Shown here: positions 10,047 through 54,582 of the stretch, piece by piece
Layout: each line of letters begins with the position of its first letter
How positions within the stretch are numbered: the stretch's first letter is position 1
Assembly: GCA_964016885.1 (NCBI GenBank)
Contig: OZ024743.1
Span: 114,328,001 to 114,392,000, forward strand
Direction of reading: 5' to 3'
Source of the DNA: Eledone cirrhosa
Lineage: Eukaryota
DNA length: 64,000 nucleotides
The notes under the pieces: generated by a model
The model's input: the letters and a program-made list of their open reading frames with translations, nothing else
Told to the model about the DNA's origin: nothing
Databases searched by the model: none
Program-made: the position numbers and the translations under genes

Positions 10047-10091
10047 ACTCTGCTCCTGTATTGTTGAGCGCTTTACATTACAACTGAAAAA

Positions 10092-12321
10092 ATGGAATTC
10101 TTTAAGATCTCTTCTTCTCTAAAAGACATACCTCTACCTAGGAACAAAGATTTTATTAAACAATTAATAGAAAAATCAGACTCTTTTATAAGAAGAATCA
10201 GGTGGCGTGCTTTCCACTTTGATAAATCTAATCTAAATTTAAATATTTCAAATCTGGATAAAATTTTCAAATCTAAAAAAAAATCCACCTCCCACAAACT
10301 ACCAATAGATTTTGAAAATGATATCGTATCCATCATCCAAGGCATCAAATTCAAAAAGAACTTCAAAGGCCAGGATTACCTAAGGAGTATTAAGGATAAT
10401 ATTGAAAATTTGGAGAAAACAGAGAAAATTCTGGTGAAGTCGGTCACAACTAATAATCTGTATGGAATAGAAAAGGACATGTATAACGACCTTATATTGA
10501 AAGAACTAAGGAAAAAGTACAAGGTAGCAAATAAGGACGAACTTGAAAAACTGAATACAGATGCATCTTGTATAATGCATGAATTAGACATTGAGAATAA
10601 AACACAACCCTTCATGCCTAGGAAACCTAAGATCAATATGAAGGATCACAAAAGAAACTTTGAAAATGATTTACCAGTCAGATTAATTGCACCATCTAAA
10701 TCTGACCTGGGCAAACTTAGCAAAAATATTCTAGACAGGGTAATACAACAAATTAAAAACTTACCTAATTTATCTTACTTAAAATTATGGAAAGGGACTA
10801 GTGAGGTTATCGATTGGTTTAAAGAAATTAAATATAACTATAATAATAAGTTTATTCAGCTGGATATTGCTAACTACTACTCATCTATCACTCCTAATCT
10901 ACTGAATAAGGCACTAAATTACGTATTTAAACATACTGACCTAACTAGCAATGAAATGCACATTATATTATCGGCAAGGAAAACATTGATAGAATTTAAT
11001 AACCAACTCTAGACTAGGGCAGATAGAAATAATAATTTCGACATAACTATGGGATCATCAGACTCAGTTCAGGTAACGGACCTTGTGGGCCTATTTATAA
11101 TTAATTCGCTACATAGAAAAATCCCAGGTGTAACCGGAGGCTTATATCGTGATGACATGCTTTTACTTATACAAAATAATAGCTGTGAACTAAATAGGAA
11201 AAGAAAACAAATTATACAATTTTTTAATTACCATAATCTAAAAGTAGAAATAGAGAATAACCATAAAATAGTCAATTTTCTTGACGTAACACTAAATCTC
11301 AACACATGTCTTCATTATCCATTTCACAAACTAAATGAGAACTTGAATTATGTTAATTTTAACTCTAATCACCCCAGATCTGTTAAAAATACTATAGTGA
11401 ACTCTGTTCAAGAAAGAATTTCAAGAATTTCATCTAATAAAAATATATTTGATGAAAAAGCGCAGTATTACAACGAAGCGTTAGGTAGAGCTGGATATAG
11501 AAATGAAACTAAATACATTGATAATAATAATAATAAGCAAACTAACCAAAATAATAACAATTTGAATTATGGTAACAACTTTAGCAACTATAATAGAAAA
11601 CATTACAATAATTCCAAAAGCCGAAAAAGAAATAGAACTAGAAACATATTATGGTTTGCTCCCCCTTTGCTCACTAAATATTAAAACCCCTATTGCTAAA
11701 CTATTCTTTAAAGCTCTTGACAAACGCTTTCCTAGAACACATAAATATTACTCAATTTTTAATAGACACACTATAAAATTAACTTACTCGTCCACCAAAA
11801 ATTTAGCACAAAATATTAATAGAATTAATAATAGAAATTTAAAACCTAACCAAAATACCAATAATAACCCAAGCAATGTTCAATTGAATAACTGTAACTG
11901 TAGAAATAAATCTAACTGTCCGTTAAATAACAATTGCTTAGCTAAAAATGTAGTGTACAATTGTAATGTTAAAACTAATTTAAATTCGTTCAACTAAGTT
12001 GGTTCTACCTCGACTGAATTTAAATTTCGCTTCAATAATCATAAAAATTCTTTCACAGATCCAAACAAAAAATCTTCAACTTCGCTATCTAGCCTACTAT
12101 GGGACCTAAAAGGAGATAATGTTAAATATTCGATGACTTGGAATATTATTTCAAAAGCTACTCCTTTTAATTCCTCTTCAGAAAATTGTGATCTTTGTAT
12201 TGAAGAAATATTCTTTATTTTAAAGTCCAAAAATTCCCTTAATTTAAGGAACAATTTATTCAGTTGCTGCAGGCATAGATTGAACTCAACGTTTAAATAT
12301 AAATATAAATTTAAAATGTAG
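10092..12321 (+). pseudogene. PLE RT + GIY-YIG endonuclease polyprotein, disrupted (stop 11010-11012, frameshift near 11668, stop 11995-11997)
   Basis: N-term SLKDIPLP..LIEKSDSFIRRIRWRAFHF; RT motifs QLDIANYYSSI, MGSSDS, GLYRDD, NFLDV; linker CNCRNKSNCPL; VVY..(Y)VGST; C-term CDLCIEE..LNLRNNLFSCCRH, a Naiad-type pattern. Confidence 0.92.
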
Positions 12322-21983: not shown

Positions 21984-23616
21984 TTACGTTTTAAATTTAT
22001 ATTTAAACGTTGAGTTCAATCTATGTCTACAGCAACTGAATAAATTGTTCCTTAGGTTCAGGGAATTTTTGGTCTTTAATATAAAGAATATTTCCTCTAT
22101 ACAAAGATCACAATTTTCTGAAGAGGAATTAAAAGGAGTAGCTTTTGAAATAATATTCCAAATCAGCGAATATTCAACATTCTTTAGTTTGAGGTCCCAT
22201 AATAAGCTAGATAGAGAAGTTGAAGATTTTTTTGTTTGGATCCGTAAAATAATTTTTATGATTATTGAAGCGGGATTTAACTCTGTGGAAGTGGATCCCA
22301 CATAATTAAATGAATTTAAATTAGTTTTTACATTACAATTATATACTATATTTTTAGCTAAGCAATTGTTATTTAACGGACAGTTAGATTTAATTATACA
22401 GTTACATTTATCAAATTGGATATTGCTTGGGTTATTAGTCGTATTTTGGTTAGGTTTTAAATTTCTATTATTAATTCTATTAATATTTTGCGCTAAGTTT
22501 TTGGTGGAAGAATAAGTTAATTTTATAGTATGTCTATTAAAAATTGAATAATATCTATGTGTTCTAGGGAAGCATTTGTCAAGAGCTTTAAAAAATAGTT
22601 TAGCAATAGGGGTTTTAATATTTAATGAGAAAGGAGTAGCGAACCATAATATGTTCCTAGTTCTACTTCTTTGTTTGTTTTCGGAATTATTGTAAGGTTT
22701 TCTATTATAGTTGTTAAAATTGTTAAAATAGTTAAAATTGTTACGATTATGGTTAGTTGTTATATTATTATTATCAATGTATTTAATTTTATTTCTATAC
22801 CCAGCTCTACCTAACGCTTCGTTGTAATAATGTGCTTTTTCGTCAAATATATTCTTATTAGCTGAAATTCTCGAAATTCGTTCCTGTACAGAGTTCACTA
22901 TAGTATTTTTAACGGATCTGGGGTGATTAGAGTTAAAATTGACGTAGTTTAAGTTCTCATTTAGTTTGTGAAATGGATAATGTAGACATGTGTTAAGGTT
23001 TAGTGTTATATCTAGAAAGTTAACTATTTTATGGTTATTCTCTATTTCTACTTTTAGATTAAGGTAATTAAAAAATTGTATAATTTGTTTTCTTTTTCTA
23101 TTTAGTTCACAGTTATTATTTTCTATAAGTAAAAGCATGTCGTCACGATATAAGCCTCCGGTTATATCAGGTATTTTCCTATGTAGAGAATTATTTATAA
23201 AGAGGCCCACAAGATCCGTTACCTGTGCCGAATCGGATGATCCCATAGTTATATAGAAGTTATTATTTCTATCTGCCTTAGTCCAGAGTTGGTTATTAAA
23301 TTATATTAATGTTTTCCGTGCCGATAATATAATGCGGATTTCATTGCTAATTAAGTGTGTATGTTTAAATGCGTAAGTTAGTGCTTTATTCAGTAGATTA
23401 GGAGTGATAGATGAGTAATAGTTAGCAATATCCAACTGAATAAACTTATTATTATAGTTATATTTAATTTCCTTAAACCAATCGATAACTTCACTAGTTC
23501 CTTTCCATAATTTTAAATAAGATAAATTCATAATTTGTGGTATTATTCTGTCTAAAATGTTTTTGCTAAGTCTGCCAAGGTCCGATTTAGATGGTGCATT
23601 AATCTGACTGGTAAAT
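21984..23616 (-). pseudogene. PLE RT/GIY-YIG, 5'-truncated, with small indels
   Basis: QLDIANYYSSI, MGSSDSAQ, GLYRDD, CNCIIKSNCPL, IVY..YVGST, CDLCIEE..CCRH. Confidence 0.92.
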
Positions 23617-26881: not shown

Positions 26882-26991
26882 CACACACATATACATACAT
26901 ACATATACACACACATATATACACACACACACATATACACATATATACACACACACACACACACATACACATGCATATATATAAATATATA

Positions 26992-27240
26992 TTTCTCTGT
27001 ATAAAATGTATAAAAGGTAGGAAATTTACCCATCTCATTACAGTTGAAAATTGCAAACTCGACTGTCACCACATATCATGAACCTGAAGATTGCGAAAGC
27101 ATGAAAGTACTTGTTCAATTAACACTTAGAATTTAATATTCTATCATACTATTTCATTATAATACCATTATATATATTTTAAAGGATTGTAAATAAAACG
27201 AGTAAATCAGACAAAGTTGGAATTCCTCTTATTAATATAA
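26992..27240 (+). repeat. 5' pLTR of PLE3
   Basis: 249-bp direct repeat at offset 4202. Confidence 0.95.
27079..27117 (+). ncRNA. Minimal type I hammerhead ribozyme
   Basis: TGAAC-CTGAAGA-TTGC(GAAA)GCAT-GAAA-GTAC-TT-GTTCA; stem III is the palindrome AGTACT. Confidence 0.88.
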
Positions 27241-27321
27241 TCTTCTATACACAATCATACACACCCGTGTATATTTACCTATCTATATCTATATATATAT
27301 TCCTATTGTGTATATGCCAAC

Positions 27322-28671
27322 ATGTCTGGAAAGCAACAAATGAAACCAACAGAATCAGAAAGAATTCTAAAGGAGATATCATCGAAATTATCAACACTTA
27401 TCACGATGATGGACACACAATCCTCTATTTTAAAGGAAATAGAAAAACAATCTACAGACGGAAAACTTATAACTGAACATATAAACTCTGAAATTAAGAA
27501 TTTAGCTGAAATTATACCAACAGTTATCAAAGATACAAGAGAAAGCCTACCACAACCCCCTTGGATGTCAGAAATAAACGAAAGAAATTTGGAAAACAAA
27601 ACACATCGAATAAGAAAAGAAATGTGGAAGACATGGAAAAAATTCCTTAACATAAGAAAACAAAATTTCTGGAAAGCATACAGATGCGAAAAATATGTCG
27701 AAACACATTCGAAATGGCTCTCTCTAACGGCACCCATACTCCCTCGTAAATACCTAATTACAGAAATTGCAGGAGAACCAGAAGAAGAAACAAAACTCCG
27801 ATGGGAACTTACATTGACAAAATTCAGGACCGACATCTCCATTTCTGAATGTAAACAATCCCGCTACAAAGCCAAATATGAAGCTATTGATGACCAAATT
27901 GAAGTTGAAATTTCAAAGCTAACGACTGGTATTATAGCTGAAAAACTACGAGAACTATGGATCGGAGATATCTCAAAAGAAGAAAACAAATCAAGAAAGG
28001 TATGGCAGCAGAAACAATTATTTCTCGATGAATATGCTGCAAATTACGGTAAAGACTCTGGAACCCTGAGAAAAAGCATTAAAAGTGGACAATCTCATCA
28101 ACACAACATACGCCAGAACACGTGCCAACACAAACACTCACCTTACCTTGAATCAAAGAAGAACTACGGTAATAACTCTTCGCTTTTTCTACAAAAACAC
28201 CCTATCGCACACAACATGAACAAAAAGCACAAACACGATAGGTATTCCTTTGACCAGACCATGAGAAGTAGTAAAACCAGGAGATCATTCTCAAGATCTC
28301 AACAGAGACTACCAACAAGGAATGTGGAAACAAAACGTAGAATAACCAGATCACTCTCAAGATCTCAACAGAGATTGCCCACAAGAAACTGGACGAAAAA
28401 ACGATCTAAACCTGAAAGCAAACCTAGGTCATTTTCCCAGATTGTTAAAAATAATGCTAACAGGAAGAAAAATAATATACAGAATACCAAAAATAGGACA
28501 AAATACATAACGAAACCAAATATAATATCACGACCAAAAGTTCATCAAGCGAACACCAACAGGAATATAAATCCTGAACAGAGAAAAATTCATTTTTTAA
28601 CGTCAGGACAACAAAAACCGGAAAAAGAAAAACTCCAGGAGGAAACATACCCAAAACAGCTGTACACGTAG
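27322..28671 (+). CDS. PLE3 ORF1, 449 aa: helical/coiled-coil-like N-terminus and a basic RS-rich C-terminus
   Basis: Long open frame in non-repetitive DNA between the pLTR and the RT; heptad-like ILKEISSKLSTLITMMDTQSSILKEIE; duplicated RSxSRSQQRLPTRN. Confidence 0.8.
   Translation: MSGKQQMKPTESERILKEISSKLSTLITMMDTQSSILKEIEKQSTDGKLITEHINSEIKNLAEIIPTVIKDTRESLPQPPWMSEINERNLENKTHRIRKEMWKTWKKFLNIRKQNFWKAYRCEKYVETHSKWLSLTAPILPRKYLITEIAGEPEEETKLRWELTLTKFRTDISISECKQSRYKAKYEAIDDQIEVEISKLTTGIIAEKLRELWIGDISKEENKSRKVWQQKQLFLDEYAANYGKDSGTLRKSIKSGQSHQHNIRQNTCQHKHSPYLESKKNYGNNSSLFLQKHPIAHNMNKKHKHDRYSFDQTMRSSKTRRSFSRSQQRLPTRNVETKRRITRSLSRSQQRLPTRNWTKKRSKPESKPRSFSQIVKNNANRKKNNIQNTKNRTKYITKPNIISRPKVHQANTNRNINPEQRKIHFLTSGQQKPEKEKLQEETYPKQLYT
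28593..28599 (+). promoter_or_regulatory. Candidate -1 ribosomal frameshift slippery heptamer T TTT TTA
   Basis: In the ORF1 frame the codons are CAT TTT TTA; the -1 frame is closed by TGA at 28575-28577 and open from 28578 through ORF2. Confidence 0.65.
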
Positions 28672-30905
28672 ATCCTAAAATAATTAATTTATCTAAAAGA
28701 GATCTTGACAATGATGAAATGCAAATTCTGTCAAAAGGACTGAAATTCACACCGACTCCAACAGTCAACCACCAAGAACTGAAGGAGGATACCCAAGAAT
28801 TCTGTCGAAAATTACGTCTTGTAGAATTCTTCGCTGATAAAAATAATGAGAGTGATGAATCACTAGTAAAGAATAAATCAAATTTCACTCCGCCAAAAGG
28901 AAGAAATATCTATCTCGACCAATACATTGACATCCTGTCTAAATTTCCTCTTAGACATAATACTAATGTTAGGCCAAACATTAACAAATCAGAAATGTCT
29001 GCACTTAAACGTATACAAAATGATAAAACAATAATAATTAAACAAGCAGATAAAGGGGGTGCAGTTGTTATAATGGATACTGAATACTACAAGGATTTGG
29101 TTGAGGAACAACTGAAAGACACAACATTCTATCATGAAATACCGTCAAATATAGACCACAACATCATGAAGAAGATCAACAACCTGGCTTCAAAATACCA
29201 CAACTCATTTACTGATAAGGAAAGAGACTACATCACCAATTTTGAGCCGAAACCCAGCAACCTGTATGGCCTACCGAAAGTTCACAAGTCAAAAGAAATA
29301 CAACTGGCAGTAAGAGAACAAAACAGTGAGTACATTAAATTATTACACCCAAAAGACTTAAAACTTAGACCTATTATAGCTGGTCCAACATGCCCCACTC
29401 ACCGTCTAAGCAATTTTGTTGACATTATTTTGAAACCACTATGTATTCACATACCCAGTTTCATCCGGGATGATATCGACTTCCTGTCCCATCTTCCCAA
29501 AACCACGGAAACGAATTCACTTCTACTCAGTTTTGATGTGGTAAGCCTTTACACCAACATTACACATGATTTAAGAATAAAGGCGGTTAAATACTGGGTG
29601 GAAAAACATAGAGAAGTGATTCCCATTAGATTCACAGCGCCATTTATATTAGACGCAGTTAAACTTATTCTGGAAAATAACACTTTCTTCTTCAATGGAA
29701 AGAATTACATCCAAATTAGAGGCACAGCGATGGGAACGAAGTTTGCTCCCGTTTACGCGAACTCTGTAATGGGATACTTAGAACAACAACTCTACCAAGA
29801 AATAGAGGAAAAATATAGTACTGACTTTAGAAAGTACATTGAAAAATCTTGGAAGAGATACCTTGACGACTGTTTCATCATCTGGACAGAATCTCTAGAT
29901 ACTCTGGATGAGTTCAATATCCTCCTGAATAACCTACACCCATCTCTCCAATTCACAAAAGAGATGAGTAGGACCAAATTACCATTCCTAGATATAATGA
30001 TAATCAAAAACGACACCACCATTACCACGGATATATATTATAAACACACAGACACCCATCAATATCTGAATTTTAAGTCGTGCCATCCACCTCATACAAA
30101 ACGCAACATCCCATACTGCCTAGCCAGAAGAATTTGTACCATTGTAGAAGATACGAATACCAGGTACAAACGCCTAACAGAACTAAGAGAATTTTTGCTC
30201 AAACAAAAATACCCATCTCTACTTATAGAAAATGGCATACAGCGGGCTATAAAAATACCTATACAACAACTTAGAACAACCCAAAGAAGAAGAAACCAAG
30301 AACTGGTCATACCATTTATAATGACACACAACCCATGTCACCAGAATATCTTCAACACTGCCAAAGCAAACCTACCGATCATTGCTCAAAGTAATGAATT
30401 AAAAGGCTTAATCACAGATCGATCTTTGACTCTTAGTAAAAGACAGCCAAAAAATTTGAAGCAATTGCTAACAAAAGCAAAGTTTGACCTTAACAACAAA
30501 GACCAATCATTCACTGTATCTAAATGCAATAATAATCGATGCGGCACATGTCAATCCATACACGCCGGTCAATATATGAAAACAAAAACTGGAAAAATAT
30601 TCACAAATGCAAATATGAACTGCAAAAGCAGAAATCTAATTTACTGCATTAAATGCCCGAATTGTGAAGAACTATATGTCGGTCAAACTGGAAATGCACT
30701 ATCGGAACGTGCACCGGTACACCGTCAACAAATCAGAGACCCAAATGTCCGTCAGATACCCCTAAGCGGCCACCTGGCAACATGTGGTCAGGGAATATTT
30801 ATAATATTCCCATTCTACAAATTACACAGCCCAAATGAAATCAAGAGAAAAATCAAAGAAAAGAATTTTATTGATAAATTCAAACCCAAGCTAAATGAAC
30901 AATAA
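28599..30905 (+). CDS. PLE3 ORF2: reverse transcriptase + Cys linker + GIY-YIG endonuclease (first Met at 28719; the frame is open from 28578)
   Basis: KIINLSKRDL..EMQILSKGLKFTP; ADKGG; LYGLPKVHK; LRPII; SFDVVSLYTNI; GTAMGTKFAP; RYLDD; LPFLD; CNNNRCGTC; NLIYCIKCPNC..YVGQT..R..H; E..FI..F.P.LN. Confidence 0.95.
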   Translation, partial: NVRTTKTGKRKTPGGNIPKTAVHVDPKIINLSKRDLDNDEMQILSKGLKFTPTPTVNHQELKEDTQEFCRKLRLVEFFADKNNESDESLVKNKSNFTPPKGRNIYLDQYIDILSKFPLRHNTNVRPNINKSEMSALKRIQNDKTIIIKQADKGGAVVIMDTEYYKDLVEEQLKDTTFYHEIPSNIDHNIMKKINNLASKYHNSFTDKERDYITNFEPKPSNLYGLPKVHKSKEIQLAVREQNSEYIKLLHPKDLKLRPIIAGPTCPTHRLSNFVDIILKPLCIHIPSFIRDDIDFLSHLPKTTETNSLLLSFDVVSLYTNITHDLRIKAVKYWVEKHREVIPIRFTAPFILDAVKLILENNTFFFNGKNYIQIRGTAMGTKFAPVYANSVMGYLEQQLYQEIEEKYSTDFRKYIEKSWKRYLDDCFIIWTESLDTLDEFNILLNNLHPSLQFTKEMSRTKLPFLDIMIIKNDTTITTDIYYKHTDTHQYLNFKSCHPPHTKRNIPYCLARRICTIVEDTNTRYKRLTELREFLLKQKYPSLLIENGIQRAIKIPIQQLRTTQRRRNQELVIPFIMTHNPCHQNIFNTAKANLPIIAQSNELKGLITDRSLTLSKRQPKNLKQLLTKAKFDLNNKDQSFTVSKCNNNRCGTCQSIHAGQYMKTKTGKIFTNANMNCKSRNLIYCIKCPNCEELYVGQTGNALSERAPVHRQQIRDPNVRQIPLSGHLATCGQGIFIIFPFYKLHSPNEIKRKIKEKNFIDKFKPKLNEQ

Positions 30906-31193
30906 TAACGCCTAGGGGTATTACTTCTACTACCACTATGACCACGACCACTAACAACAACAACAACAACAATAATAATAATAATAAAAGTGATGTTGAT
31001 GGTGATGATTAATAGAAAAGGCTATTTTCATCATTTCAAAAAAGCAAAACAATTGATACGTTGGATATGACTATTGGTCGTTAGCATGTTCAACCAGCCG
31101 TGACGCTTAAACCAATCAGCTGTAGTAATTCAGTGAAACTACACACTGATTGGTCGAAATACAGTTTACAGGGCTTTGCATTCTGGAGCCACT

Positions 31194-31436
31194 TTTCTCT
31201 GTATAAAATGTATAAAAGGTAGGAAATTTACCCATCTCATTACAGTTGAAAATTGCAAACTCGACTGTCACCACATATCATGAACCTGAAGATTGCGAAA
31301 GCATGAAAGTACTTGTTCAATTAACACTTAGAATTTAATATTCTATCATACTATTTCATTATAATACCATTATATATATTTTAAAGGATTGTAAATAAAA
31401 CGAGTAAATCAGACAAAGTTGGAATTCCTCTTATTA

Positions 31437-31442
<6 letters not shown>
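31194..31442 (+). repeat. 3' pLTR of PLE3 (CCAAT-like motifs at about 31111 and 31150 just upstream; TATA-like TATAAAA inside)
   Basis: Direct repeat of 26992-27240. Confidence 0.95.
31281..31319 (+). ncRNA. Minimal type I hammerhead ribozyme (3' pLTR of PLE3)
   Basis: Identical to 27079-27117. Confidence 0.88.
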
Positions 31443-31477
<35 letters not shown>

Positions 31478-31623
31478 TACACATACAAACACAGACATAT
31501 ACATAAATATACACATATATACAAACATATATACGCATATATACACACATATATACATATATATACACGCATACACACATACACACACACACACAAATAT
31601 ATATACACACACTCTCTCTCACG

Positions 31624-32227: not shown

Positions 32228-32644
32228 TTAGCCATCGGGCTTTAACACTGGCTTAAAGTGTTTGAAAGTTGCAAAGTTCTTGTGCATGCAGTTCGGGCAG
32301 TGTTCAGAGAGTTTGTTCCGTAGCGGGCCCTTGGCGAATAACATTTCGTAGCTCTCTGAAATACAAAGGACGCAGCCCTTGTGTCCTCCGTTGTAAGAGC
32401 GCGCTTTCTGGAGTATTTTCCATTTAAGCGTGAAGGGGGTGGAGTTCCTTTTGAGGTACCAAACGTAGGAGGCGAGTGTTGTCTGATTTGATTTGTCCGG
32501 TCTCCTGAAGGAGTGGGTATGGGCATACCAACGGGTCTTAAAGTTGTTGGAGGTCATGCCGATGTAAGTTTTTTTGCAATCCTCGGTGCCTGAGATGACA
32601 TCGCATTTGTATACGATATCATTTGTGAGGCATTTGTTTTCAGC
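32228..32644 (-). pseudogene. PLE4: 5'-truncated Naiad-like GIY-YIG endonuclease
   Basis: ENKCLTNDIVYKCDV..TYIGMTSNNFKTRWYAHTHSF..TTLASYVWYLK..CVLCISE..CMH. Confidence 0.88.
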
Positions 32645-32776
32645 TTTTAATGAATTCGTTTTTAGCTTTTAATGAATTCCCTTTTCTATCAACCAATGAC
32701 CTACACCCATCCCACTCCCCACCCTCTCCTACCACTTGAAGAGACCTATAAATACCATATTTATTTTTTGATACCC

Positions 32777-53497: not shown

Positions 53498-53861
53498 TAC
53501 ATATACACGCACATATATATATATGTGTGTGTGTGTGGGTGTATATAATACTGACTCGTTGACCCGCTGATCACCAATTTATCATAAGGAGCCATTGCAG
53601 CACATAAGAACAAATCGAAACCAAATTTATAAAGAAATAGTTGATAACAGACCCATCCTCTATAGAATTCCGGAAAATTCTAGATAAATCATATCCCCCC
53701 CCCCCCCCCCAAATGATATTGCACATTTGAAATATAAAAAAATAGGTTTTTATCATTATTCCCATATTCCCATGAGCCTACTACAGAACACAACAATATC
53801 TTCCGTCAGAAGATGTGGACAAGAAGTGAGAAAGTCCTTTTCTTTCTTTAAGTGCATATAT

Positions 53862-54582
53862 ATATAAAATCTTTTAGTGTCCTAGAGAAAAACTTCCCAC
53901 CAAACCATAAATACCATCAAATTTTAAATAGATCAACTGTCAAATTTTCCTACTCCACTACCAAAAATATACAACAGAATATAAGTGCGTACAACGCATA
54001 TAAATGTAAAAAACCCACAAATATACCACCAACACATCAAACCAATCATAATACTAAAATAAACCACAACAAACCACCATCTCCTTCACCTATAACAAGT
54101 CGAGTAAATTCTACACCAAATTTGACTAACTCCCCTGATATAATATTCACGAAAGGTTGTAACTGTAGAATCAAAAGAAATTGCCCATTAAATGGAAATT
54201 GTCTTATTAATAACATAGTCTATAAATGTAAAATTAGCAATAAGGACTCCACTTATTCGTATATAGGAGCTACGTGTAACCAATTTAAAGTAAGATTTAA
54301 TACCCACAAACATAGTTTTAAAAATGCTGCATTAGCTAATACAACATCCTTGGCTGAAACAATTAATAATTATAGAAAGAAGAATATCGATTACAAATTG
54401 ACCTGGAGCGTGCTCAAAAGGCCACCCCTTATCAAAATAACAGATACGAGTGTAGGTTATGCTCCCAGGAACATTTTGAAATCATGAAATCTAAGGATAT
54501 CCTATTAAATAAGCGACAGGAATTAATTATATCTTGCAAGCATAAAATTAGAAGAACCTTCAAATATTATAAACCTAATTAA
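53862..54582 (+). pseudogene. PLE6: 5'-truncated Naiad-like thumb/GIY-YIG, frameshift near 54420; tail to about 55468
   Basis: FPPNHKYHQILNRSTVKFSYSTTKN; CNCRIKRNCPLNGNC; IVY..YIGAT..FKVRFNTHKHSF; in the other frame ATPYQNNRYECRLCSQE..LLNKRQELIISCKH..*. Confidence 0.88.

Follow-up and report, generated by a model that had tools for sequence, protein, structure and literature searches.

The window analysed here, a stretch of 64,000 nucleotides (nt) of Eledone cirrhosa (assembly GCA_964016885.1, contig OZ024743.1, positions 114,328,001 to 114,392,000 of the forward strand), contains a Penelope-like element (PLE) with two overlapping open reading frames (ORFs). ORF2, which encodes the reverse transcriptase (RT) together with an endonuclease (EN) of GIY-YIG type, lies in the -1 frame relative to the upstream ORF1. 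Programmed -1 ribosomal frameshifting (PRF) at the heptamer U_UUU_UUA (28593-28599) is the best reading of this junction, and on the sequence we give it a probability of roughly 85%. The mRNA would yield mostly the ORF1 protein of 449 amino acids (aa), and ribosomes slipping back one base at the heptamer would produce a minority 1,194-aa ORF1-RT-endonuclease fusion, at a rate of a few percent that would come from the inherent slipperiness of U6A. An earlier annotation, made by a model from the letters of the window (the sequence-only reading), had proposed an abundant ORF1 protein with a rarer fusion of this kind. The layout and the heptamer, both of which recur across families, support that proposal; the slip itself we infer.

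A two-frame junction with a conserved heptamer

The ORF2 frame opens after the TGA at 28575-28577, and the heptamer TTTTTTA begins 15 nt past this -1-frame stop. It begins at the third position of an ORF1 codon, which places it in the correct X_XXY_YYZ phase; ORF1 reads His-Phe-Leu at this point. Against the background of 14 element bodies (12 heptamers in 31,942 nt), a 31-codon overlap would contain an in-phase TTTTTT(A/G) with a probability of about 1.2%. The first ATG of ORF2 (28719) lies 16 codons after the conserved motif region begins and 48 nt past the ORF1 stop. Recomputation gave the same coordinates for ORF1, the overlap, the heptamer and Met 28719 as the sequence-only reading. The heptamer is thus in phase inside the -1 overlap, as expected of a PRF signal, and it is conserved both within the family of the window element and across its clade.

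A first look at the 3.0-Gb genome gave 1616 junction candidates. All 40 own-genome matches that were scored were 100% identical over 28400-28900, a figure biased by their having been chosen by identity. The 58 siblings aligned (29 from the junction search and 29 via a distant protein query) were 98.2-99.9% identical (median 99.8%). In all 58 the seven columns of the heptamer were invariant, the six-T run was without indel and both frames were kept. Columns near the heptamer do vary (28590 in 5 siblings; 28591, 28603 and 28605 in 1 each). The alignment of copies, by which a private 1-nt indel or a single-ORF family would have come to light, therefore did not refute the two-frame layout. A private indel or a homopolymer error of the assembly is ruled out by the own-genome matches together with the siblings, and decay by the two open frames and the high identity of the siblings. 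The element had been described as intact. This holds for the frames, neither of which contains a stop, but ORF2 of the window copy carries two missense changes relative to nearly all siblings (29574, different from 55/55 covering siblings, and 30531, different from 27 of 28).

Conservation of a homopolymer exactly at the frame junction would also be expected if RNA polymerase II slipped on the six T, adding one U and giving rise to a minority of single-ORF mRNAs. The RT-encoding RNAs should then return as seven-T insertions; however, run indels were found in 0/58 siblings, nor was one seen in four contig runs (X1-X4). Six T is short for polymerase slippage, and the strict, Leu-preserving A or G at position 7 suggests decoding. 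We consider this explanation hardly plausible.

The heptamer was also present in phase in four other families of the same genome (families B, C, D and E). In family B (ORF2 49% identical to that of the window, ORF1 400 aa) 25 of 30 loci had six T plus A in phase; of the five misses three were 5'-truncated, one had seven T and one had a downstream 1-nt deletion. Family C (ORF2 48% identical) had the heptamer in 13/13 loci, hand-picked from match lists, and the mutually related families D and E had it in all 30 loci with a motif match, of 35 examined. Two decayed own-genome copies of other families (L195 and L240) contained no heptamer in the computed overlap. Within family C (L225-L237) a poly-C run 30-45 nt past the heptamer varies by three-base steps, resulting in frames of 777, 778 and 779 aa; selection by open frame may explain this.

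These families bear on the possibility that the heptamer is incidental and ORF2 is translated alone, either from a shorter RNA or by reinitiation past the stop of ORF1, with ATG 28719 or a non-AUG codon as its start. The L1 retrotransposon ORF2 is made by such translation of a separate ORF. The L1 layout is mentioned in PMC5009743. A protein of 729 aa that includes RT and EN would result from translation at ATG 28719, and in family C a Met lies six codons ahead of the motif. Initiation at the first Met would, however, cut off KIINLS in the window element, 37 codons of the motif region in families D and E (where the first Met lies that far past the motif start) and about 136 codons in family B, which has no Met before residue 163 of the ORF2 frame. 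The argument of the sequence-only reading that independent initiation would truncate ORF2 thus stands for the window, where KIINLS precedes Met 28719, and is stronger in family B, but it does not extend to family C. Separate initiation also does not account for the in-phase heptamer, which has a chance of about 1% per family and is retained even in family C. We judge this explanation very unlikely.

Outside this genome, relatives were found at 75 metagenome and 59 genome-collection loci, of which those with the N-terminal motif were scored. The genome-collection loci are eukaryote-type elements in prokaryote bins and probably represent host contamination. The same probably applies to PLE sequences L106-L164 and proteins P0006, P0010, P0066 and P0094, which are filed under bacterial bins or symbiont names. 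The in-phase TTTTTT(A/G) was present in 10 of the 14 junctions tested, at about 1% chance each. Seven of the nine outside loci nearest to the window element had it (L031, L032, L035, L037, L039, L056 and L106, with L031 and L039 close kin). The four misses are the fragments L038 and L059 and the two decayed own-genome copies; in L038, which has little sequence upstream, A_AAA_AAC takes the in-phase position. A FastTree tree placed the window element in a clade of 19 of the 58 rows (SH-like support 99), with long-branch warnings for L056, L035 and L038. Nine of the ten clade members seen as DNA carry the in-phase heptamer, as does the broken L037, which is outside the tree. The run is exactly six T in each of these heptamers, the sequence upstream is just 30-55% pyrimidines, and TTA and TTG both encode Leu. 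The flanks of the heptamer are unalignable across the clade and the heptamer itself is conserved. In L032, L035 and L106 the -1 frame opens 0-3 nt ahead of it.

A separate branch has another classic heptamer, G_GGT_TT(T/C), at the end of a long ORF1. In eight distinct junctions from one assembly (L088, L091, L094, L095, L097, L099, L101 and L104) the stop of ORF1 follows within 0-6 nt, and in L112 and L100 it is further away. Several of this branch have a small hairpin 6-9 nt downstream, and their ORF1 is unalignable to that of the window. The frameshift layout is widespread among PLEs, not universal. What looks like a third mode of ORF coupling was seen in L048, L050, L051, L054, L055, L063 and L064, in which upstream frames of up to 460-715 aa overlap ORF2 by 10-70 nt in either frame, with an early ORF2 Met and no slippery heptamer.

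ORF1 homologues and the splicing alternative

ORF1 consists of a conserved N-terminal and central core (approximately aa 1-245) followed by a basic low-complexity tail. Pfam gave no family above cut-off for ORF1, and no esterase match. A sequence search of the PDB gave only a designed coiled coil (E 0.034), and an Atlas search a best score of 0.84, to be taken as a lead only; none of these searches assigned a fold to ORF1. A word search found four close homologues and a profile search 1119 clusters (E<=0.001). The best 150 of these 1119 are 113-706 aa long and stand alone, with no clean ORF1-RT fusion, and a weak search for ORF1 among longer, fused proteins found none. Three ORF1 homologues of 389-706 aa (P0136, P0239 and P0123) run, on inspection, into ORF2-like or unrelated sequence; these are chimeric or mis-called proteins, not full fusions. 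Judging by the basic tail, ORF1p may be an RNA-binding or ribonucleoprotein (RNP) component needed in excess of RT, with a gag-like stoichiometry.

In an alignment of eight ORF1 proteins, F and L were the sole invariant columns of the C-terminal half. Among the 151 proteins examined, 114 had a tail of at least 100 aa; 91 of these 114 had Phe-Leu in the last 45 aa, versus 5.9% expected on the basis of the remaining tail sequence, a count made in protein only, with codons unseen, and with a small circularity in that the search profile held the FL columns. The residue after Phe-Leu was most commonly Gly (34 of 91), and Gly also follows Phe-Leu in HIV-1 (PMC4373837).

Besides this limit on the Phe-Leu count, several results weigh against frameshifting. 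The remaining 23 of the 114 homologues have no Phe-Leu within their last 45 aa. In family C a Met of its own is available ahead of the motif, and distant PLEs have either a long open frame before the motif (L067, L078 and L044) or an ORF2 that starts with Met (the L050-L055 group). In 9 of 10 junctions the first AG past the T run would give ORF2 in phase 2. Finally, the stimulatory stem-loop or pseudoknot 5-9 nt downstream that is looked for in a PRF signal was not detected in the window family. No hairpin after the heptamer exceeded shuffled sequences in minimum free energy (MFE; z +0.6 to +1.0), a simple stem search found no H-type pseudoknot there, and the best long-range duplex with the heptamer region was within the shuffled range. 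The sequence-only reading had likewise seen no strong hairpin or pseudoknot.

The phase of the first AG is also what would be expected if the T run were the pyrimidine tract of the 3' splice site of a retained intron. With a phase-2 donor at 28241/28242, for example, and the AG at 28605-28606 as acceptor, splicing would then fuse the core of ORF1 with ORF2, while ORF1p would be made from the unspliced RNA. This is the serious rival. PLEs are known to keep introns (PMC8557442), a phase-2 GT donor is present at 28242, and the codon after Leu starts with G in 65 of 91 ORF1 homologues. In the other 26 it does not, however, and the run never departs from six T, with the sequence upstream of it rich in purines. 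The window family, L106 and L056 have no AG directly past the run, the first AG in L056 being in phase 0, and acceptor phases were mixed, on inspection, in the G_GGU_UUU branch. ORF1 is open through and beyond the run in all. The donor G at 28242 is changed in 3 of 53 siblings and in most of the contig depth of runs X1 and X4, and no joint into 28607 was found in runs X1-X4, a weak test on contig runs of unknown kind from one study. Splicing is unlikely on this evidence.

Stimulation and the position of the ORF1 stop

Because no 3' structure was detectable in the window family, frameshifting there would depend on the basal slip of U6A. This could be a sufficient mechanism, since for U6A alone a -1 shift of 4-6% has been reported in reticulocyte lysate with no stimulator present (PMC3458567), as has a response of the slippage to the supply of Leu-tRNA(UAA) (PMC6547452). 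The weak CCGGA/TCCAGG pairing pointed out in the sequence-only reading does equal the MFE hairpin, but it is weaker than shuffles. A 6-bp pairing of 28572-28577 with 28603-28608 around the heptamer was dropped, as inspection did not reveal it in family B. Strong hairpins (z -3.5 to -4.4) were found only in L032 and L035. The small hairpin of family C, at +8, does not exceed shuffles, and in families D and E A/C-rich sequence on both sides of the ORF1 stop cannot fold.

In 28 of 91 homologues the ORF1 stop lies exactly 10 codons past the site, versus about 3 under a geometric null, and in only 3 of 91 (all 1 codon) does it lie 0-8 codons past the site, versus 30-46 under the null. Families D and E have the stop 30 nt past the heptamer in 29 of 30 loci. 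On the ORF1 tree the 10-codon label is clustered and needs 11 changes, at least 6 of them forced by strong branches, and among the 10-residue tails there is no sequence relationship. The spacing is not a by-product of the ORF2 motif, because the 30-nt stop lies 59, 71 and 188 nt upstream of the motif in D/E, L037 and L056. Other spacings are 23 codons in the window family, 20 in B, 19 in C, 12 in L031/L039, 17 in L032, 19 in L106 and 1 in L035. The 23-residue tail length is common to the window ORF1, P0121, P0122 and P0124.

Ten codons correspond to approximately one eukaryotic ribosome spacing. A leading ribosome terminating at the ORF1 stop might hold the trailing one with U_UUU_UUA in its decoding sites. 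That such a queue stimulates a structure-free -1 frameshift throughout this large clade of endonuclease-bearing PLEs, with more than a thousand ORF1 clusters, is a tentative suggestion, which we think rather doubtful. It does not fit the window family itself, with 23 codons instead of 10; this family might then be derived and depend on basal slipperiness or on a longer queue. For HIV-1 there is support for slippage while the next codon occupies the A site (PMC4373837). An effect of the stop position is known from SARS-CoV-2, where it is explained by refolding of the pseudoknot (PMC8168617).

Identity of the element and comparison with known systems

The element is a young, multi-copy PLE of Neptune type by its linker motif; the RT tree held unnamed relatives only. 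Its features are listed in Table 1. The PLE-type RT was identified by RVT_1 (PF00078; E 2.4e-6, 27.9 bits, slightly below the cut-off of 29.6) together with the YLDD and DKG motifs, and GIY-YIG (PF01541) lies C-terminal to it in the same frame (E 3e-5, above cut-off). The C-X4-C-X2-C motif at 30525-30551 agrees with the CX2-5CxxC linker described for the Neptune and Nematis clades (PMC8557442). ORF2 has 540 homologues at E<=1e-30 with RT/GIY-YIG annotation, the best 120 being 44-65% identical; those that carry names are genes of bivalves or contigs with a mollusc-symbiont label. Public gene models of ORF2 begin at the first Met and have lost the N-terminus. Viral contigs gave no relative.

Table 1. 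Positions of the element and its parts in the window
Feature	Position	Strand	Remarks
Whole element	26992-31442	+	Between (TA)n/(CA)n microsatellites; pseudo-LTR at each end
5' pseudo-LTR (249 bp)	26992-27240	+	(TA)n/(CA)n microsatellite before it; matches 31194-31442 exactly
Candidate minimal type-I hammerhead ribozyme	27079-27117	+	Scripted pattern and fold
ORF1 (449 aa)	27322-28671	+	ATG 27322, TAG 28669-28671
Two 66-nt direct repeats	28271-28402	+	74% alike, within the basic tail of ORF1
Last TGA of the ORF2 frame	28575-28577	+	Bounds the overlap on its 5' side
ORF2 frame (775 aa, stop to stop)	28578-30905	+	PLE motif, RT, Zn-finger-like linker, GIY-YIG
Slippery heptamer T_TTT_TTA	28593-28599	+	Predicted -1 shift site; Phe-Leu in ORF1
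ORF1 stop TAG	28669-28671	+	23 codons (69 nt) past the heptamer
N-terminal PLE motif KIINLS	28677-28694	+	ORF2 frame
RT core (PF00078)	29472-29894	+	ORF2 aa 299-439, YLDD
C-X4-C-X2-C linker motif	30525-30551	+	Neptune/Nematis type
GIY-YIG endonuclease (PF01541)	30636-30896	+	ORF2 aa 687-773
3' pseudo-LTR	31194-31442	+	Holds second hammerhead candidate 31281-31319; (TA)n after

The two pseudo-long terminal repeats (pLTRs), which had been described as looking identical, show zero differences across 249 bp. Sibling loci contain an upstream pLTR and inverted truncated copies, in agreement with the tandem or inverted partial copies that mark PLEs. The hammerhead candidate has a CUGAAGA core, a short helix II, GAAA, a palindromic GUAC and a 5-bp helix I, with an atypical U-U as closing pair of helix II. 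Rfam gave no credible match over 26900-31500 and no hammerhead at E<=5; a hammerhead architecture of this type has been described for PLE pLTRs (PMC4209133). A donor-like AG|GTAG at 27017 in the pLTR recalls the 5' UTR intron of the Drosophila virilis Penelope.

Elsewhere in the window, broken frames of other retroelements were found at 10068-11994 (+), 21987-23300 (-), 32231-32668 (-) and 53852-54484 (+), with a GLYRDD-type RT motif, GIY-YIG-like pieces and no tblastn match to this element. They resemble other PLE clades, perhaps Naiad/Hydra-like ones. A loose hammerhead-core pattern (CUGANGA...GAAA) occurs at 21 places in the window, several in repeated families and some by chance (e.g. 9855, 14016, 32783, 33062, 38319, 40152 and 51761 on the + strand; 49728, 23974 and 17327 on the - strand).

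If frameshifting is correct, many endonuclease-bearing (EN+) PLEs follow a gag-pol logic instead of a single-ORF one. Protein annotation of PLEs, and the definition of the active protein in biochemistry, would change, and the widespread, uncharacterised ORF1 family would become a candidate for the PLE RNP protein. Studies of translation would gain a naturally occurring set of U6A sites whose flanks are unrelated and which have no RNA stimulator, and the sharp 10-codon stop spacing would make queue-driven -1 frameshifting in eukaryotes directly testable.

The element shares with HIV-1 gag-pol a U_UUU_UUA read as Phe-Leu and a structural ORF before the RT (PMC6547452, PMC4373837, PMC3458567), and in most relatives a G, often of a Gly codon, comes next, as in HIV-1 (PMC4373837). 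In contrast to HIV-1 it has no stem-loop, LTR, protease, integrase, capsid or envelope, which makes it neither a virus nor an LTR element. Extra coding sequence ahead of the RT is also present in the killifish Neptune element repeat.CL27, whose ORFs are non-overlapping, with no frameshift mentioned in the available text (PMC12602865). Additional coding sequence before the RT is likewise carried by Neptune-like PLEs with an esterase, known from fish and molluscs (PMC5408684); ORF1 of the window element gave no esterase match.

A term search of the available parts of PMC11167929, PMC3846280, PMC6431247, PMC5718144, PMC5009743 and the preprint 10.64898/2026.07.22.740005 gave no frameshift for EN+ PLEs. 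In these literature excerpts no text names a frameshifted ORF1 for endonuclease-bearing clades, and Repbase, Dfam or Fig. 1 of Craig et al. may already describe one. Rotifer Athena/Terminon elements reportedly have an ORF1 frameshift with a pseudoknot, in work by Arkhipova and colleagues from 2017, and may be the types meant in the figure legend quoted next. According to the legend of Fig. 1 in Craig et al. 2021 (PMC8557442), ORF1 is separable by a frameshift with a pseudoknot in some PLE types, the available text leaving the clade unstated. The novelty is accordingly less than the sequence-only reading had scored it. In those types, as in the present element, a predicted frameshift links an upstream ORF1 to the RT; here, by contrast, the RT frame carries a C-terminal endonuclease and no pseudoknot was detectable. 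An assignment to Athena/Terminon, which are EN-minus and telomere-associated, does not agree with the GIY-YIG domain or with copies spread along chromosomes.

With the Neptune and Nematis PLEs, which have a C-terminal endonuclease, the element shares the order RT-CX2-5CxxC-GIY-YIG, pLTRs, partial copies and (TA)n insertion, and perhaps a pLTR hammerhead (Craig et al. 2021, PMC8557442). Canonical EN+ PLEs are termed single-ORF there, as the sequence-only reading had said of endonuclease-bearing PLEs in general. The present element differs from them in that two frames were found in 58/58 siblings and in four other families, a 449-aa ORF1 without known family overlapping the RT frame in -1.

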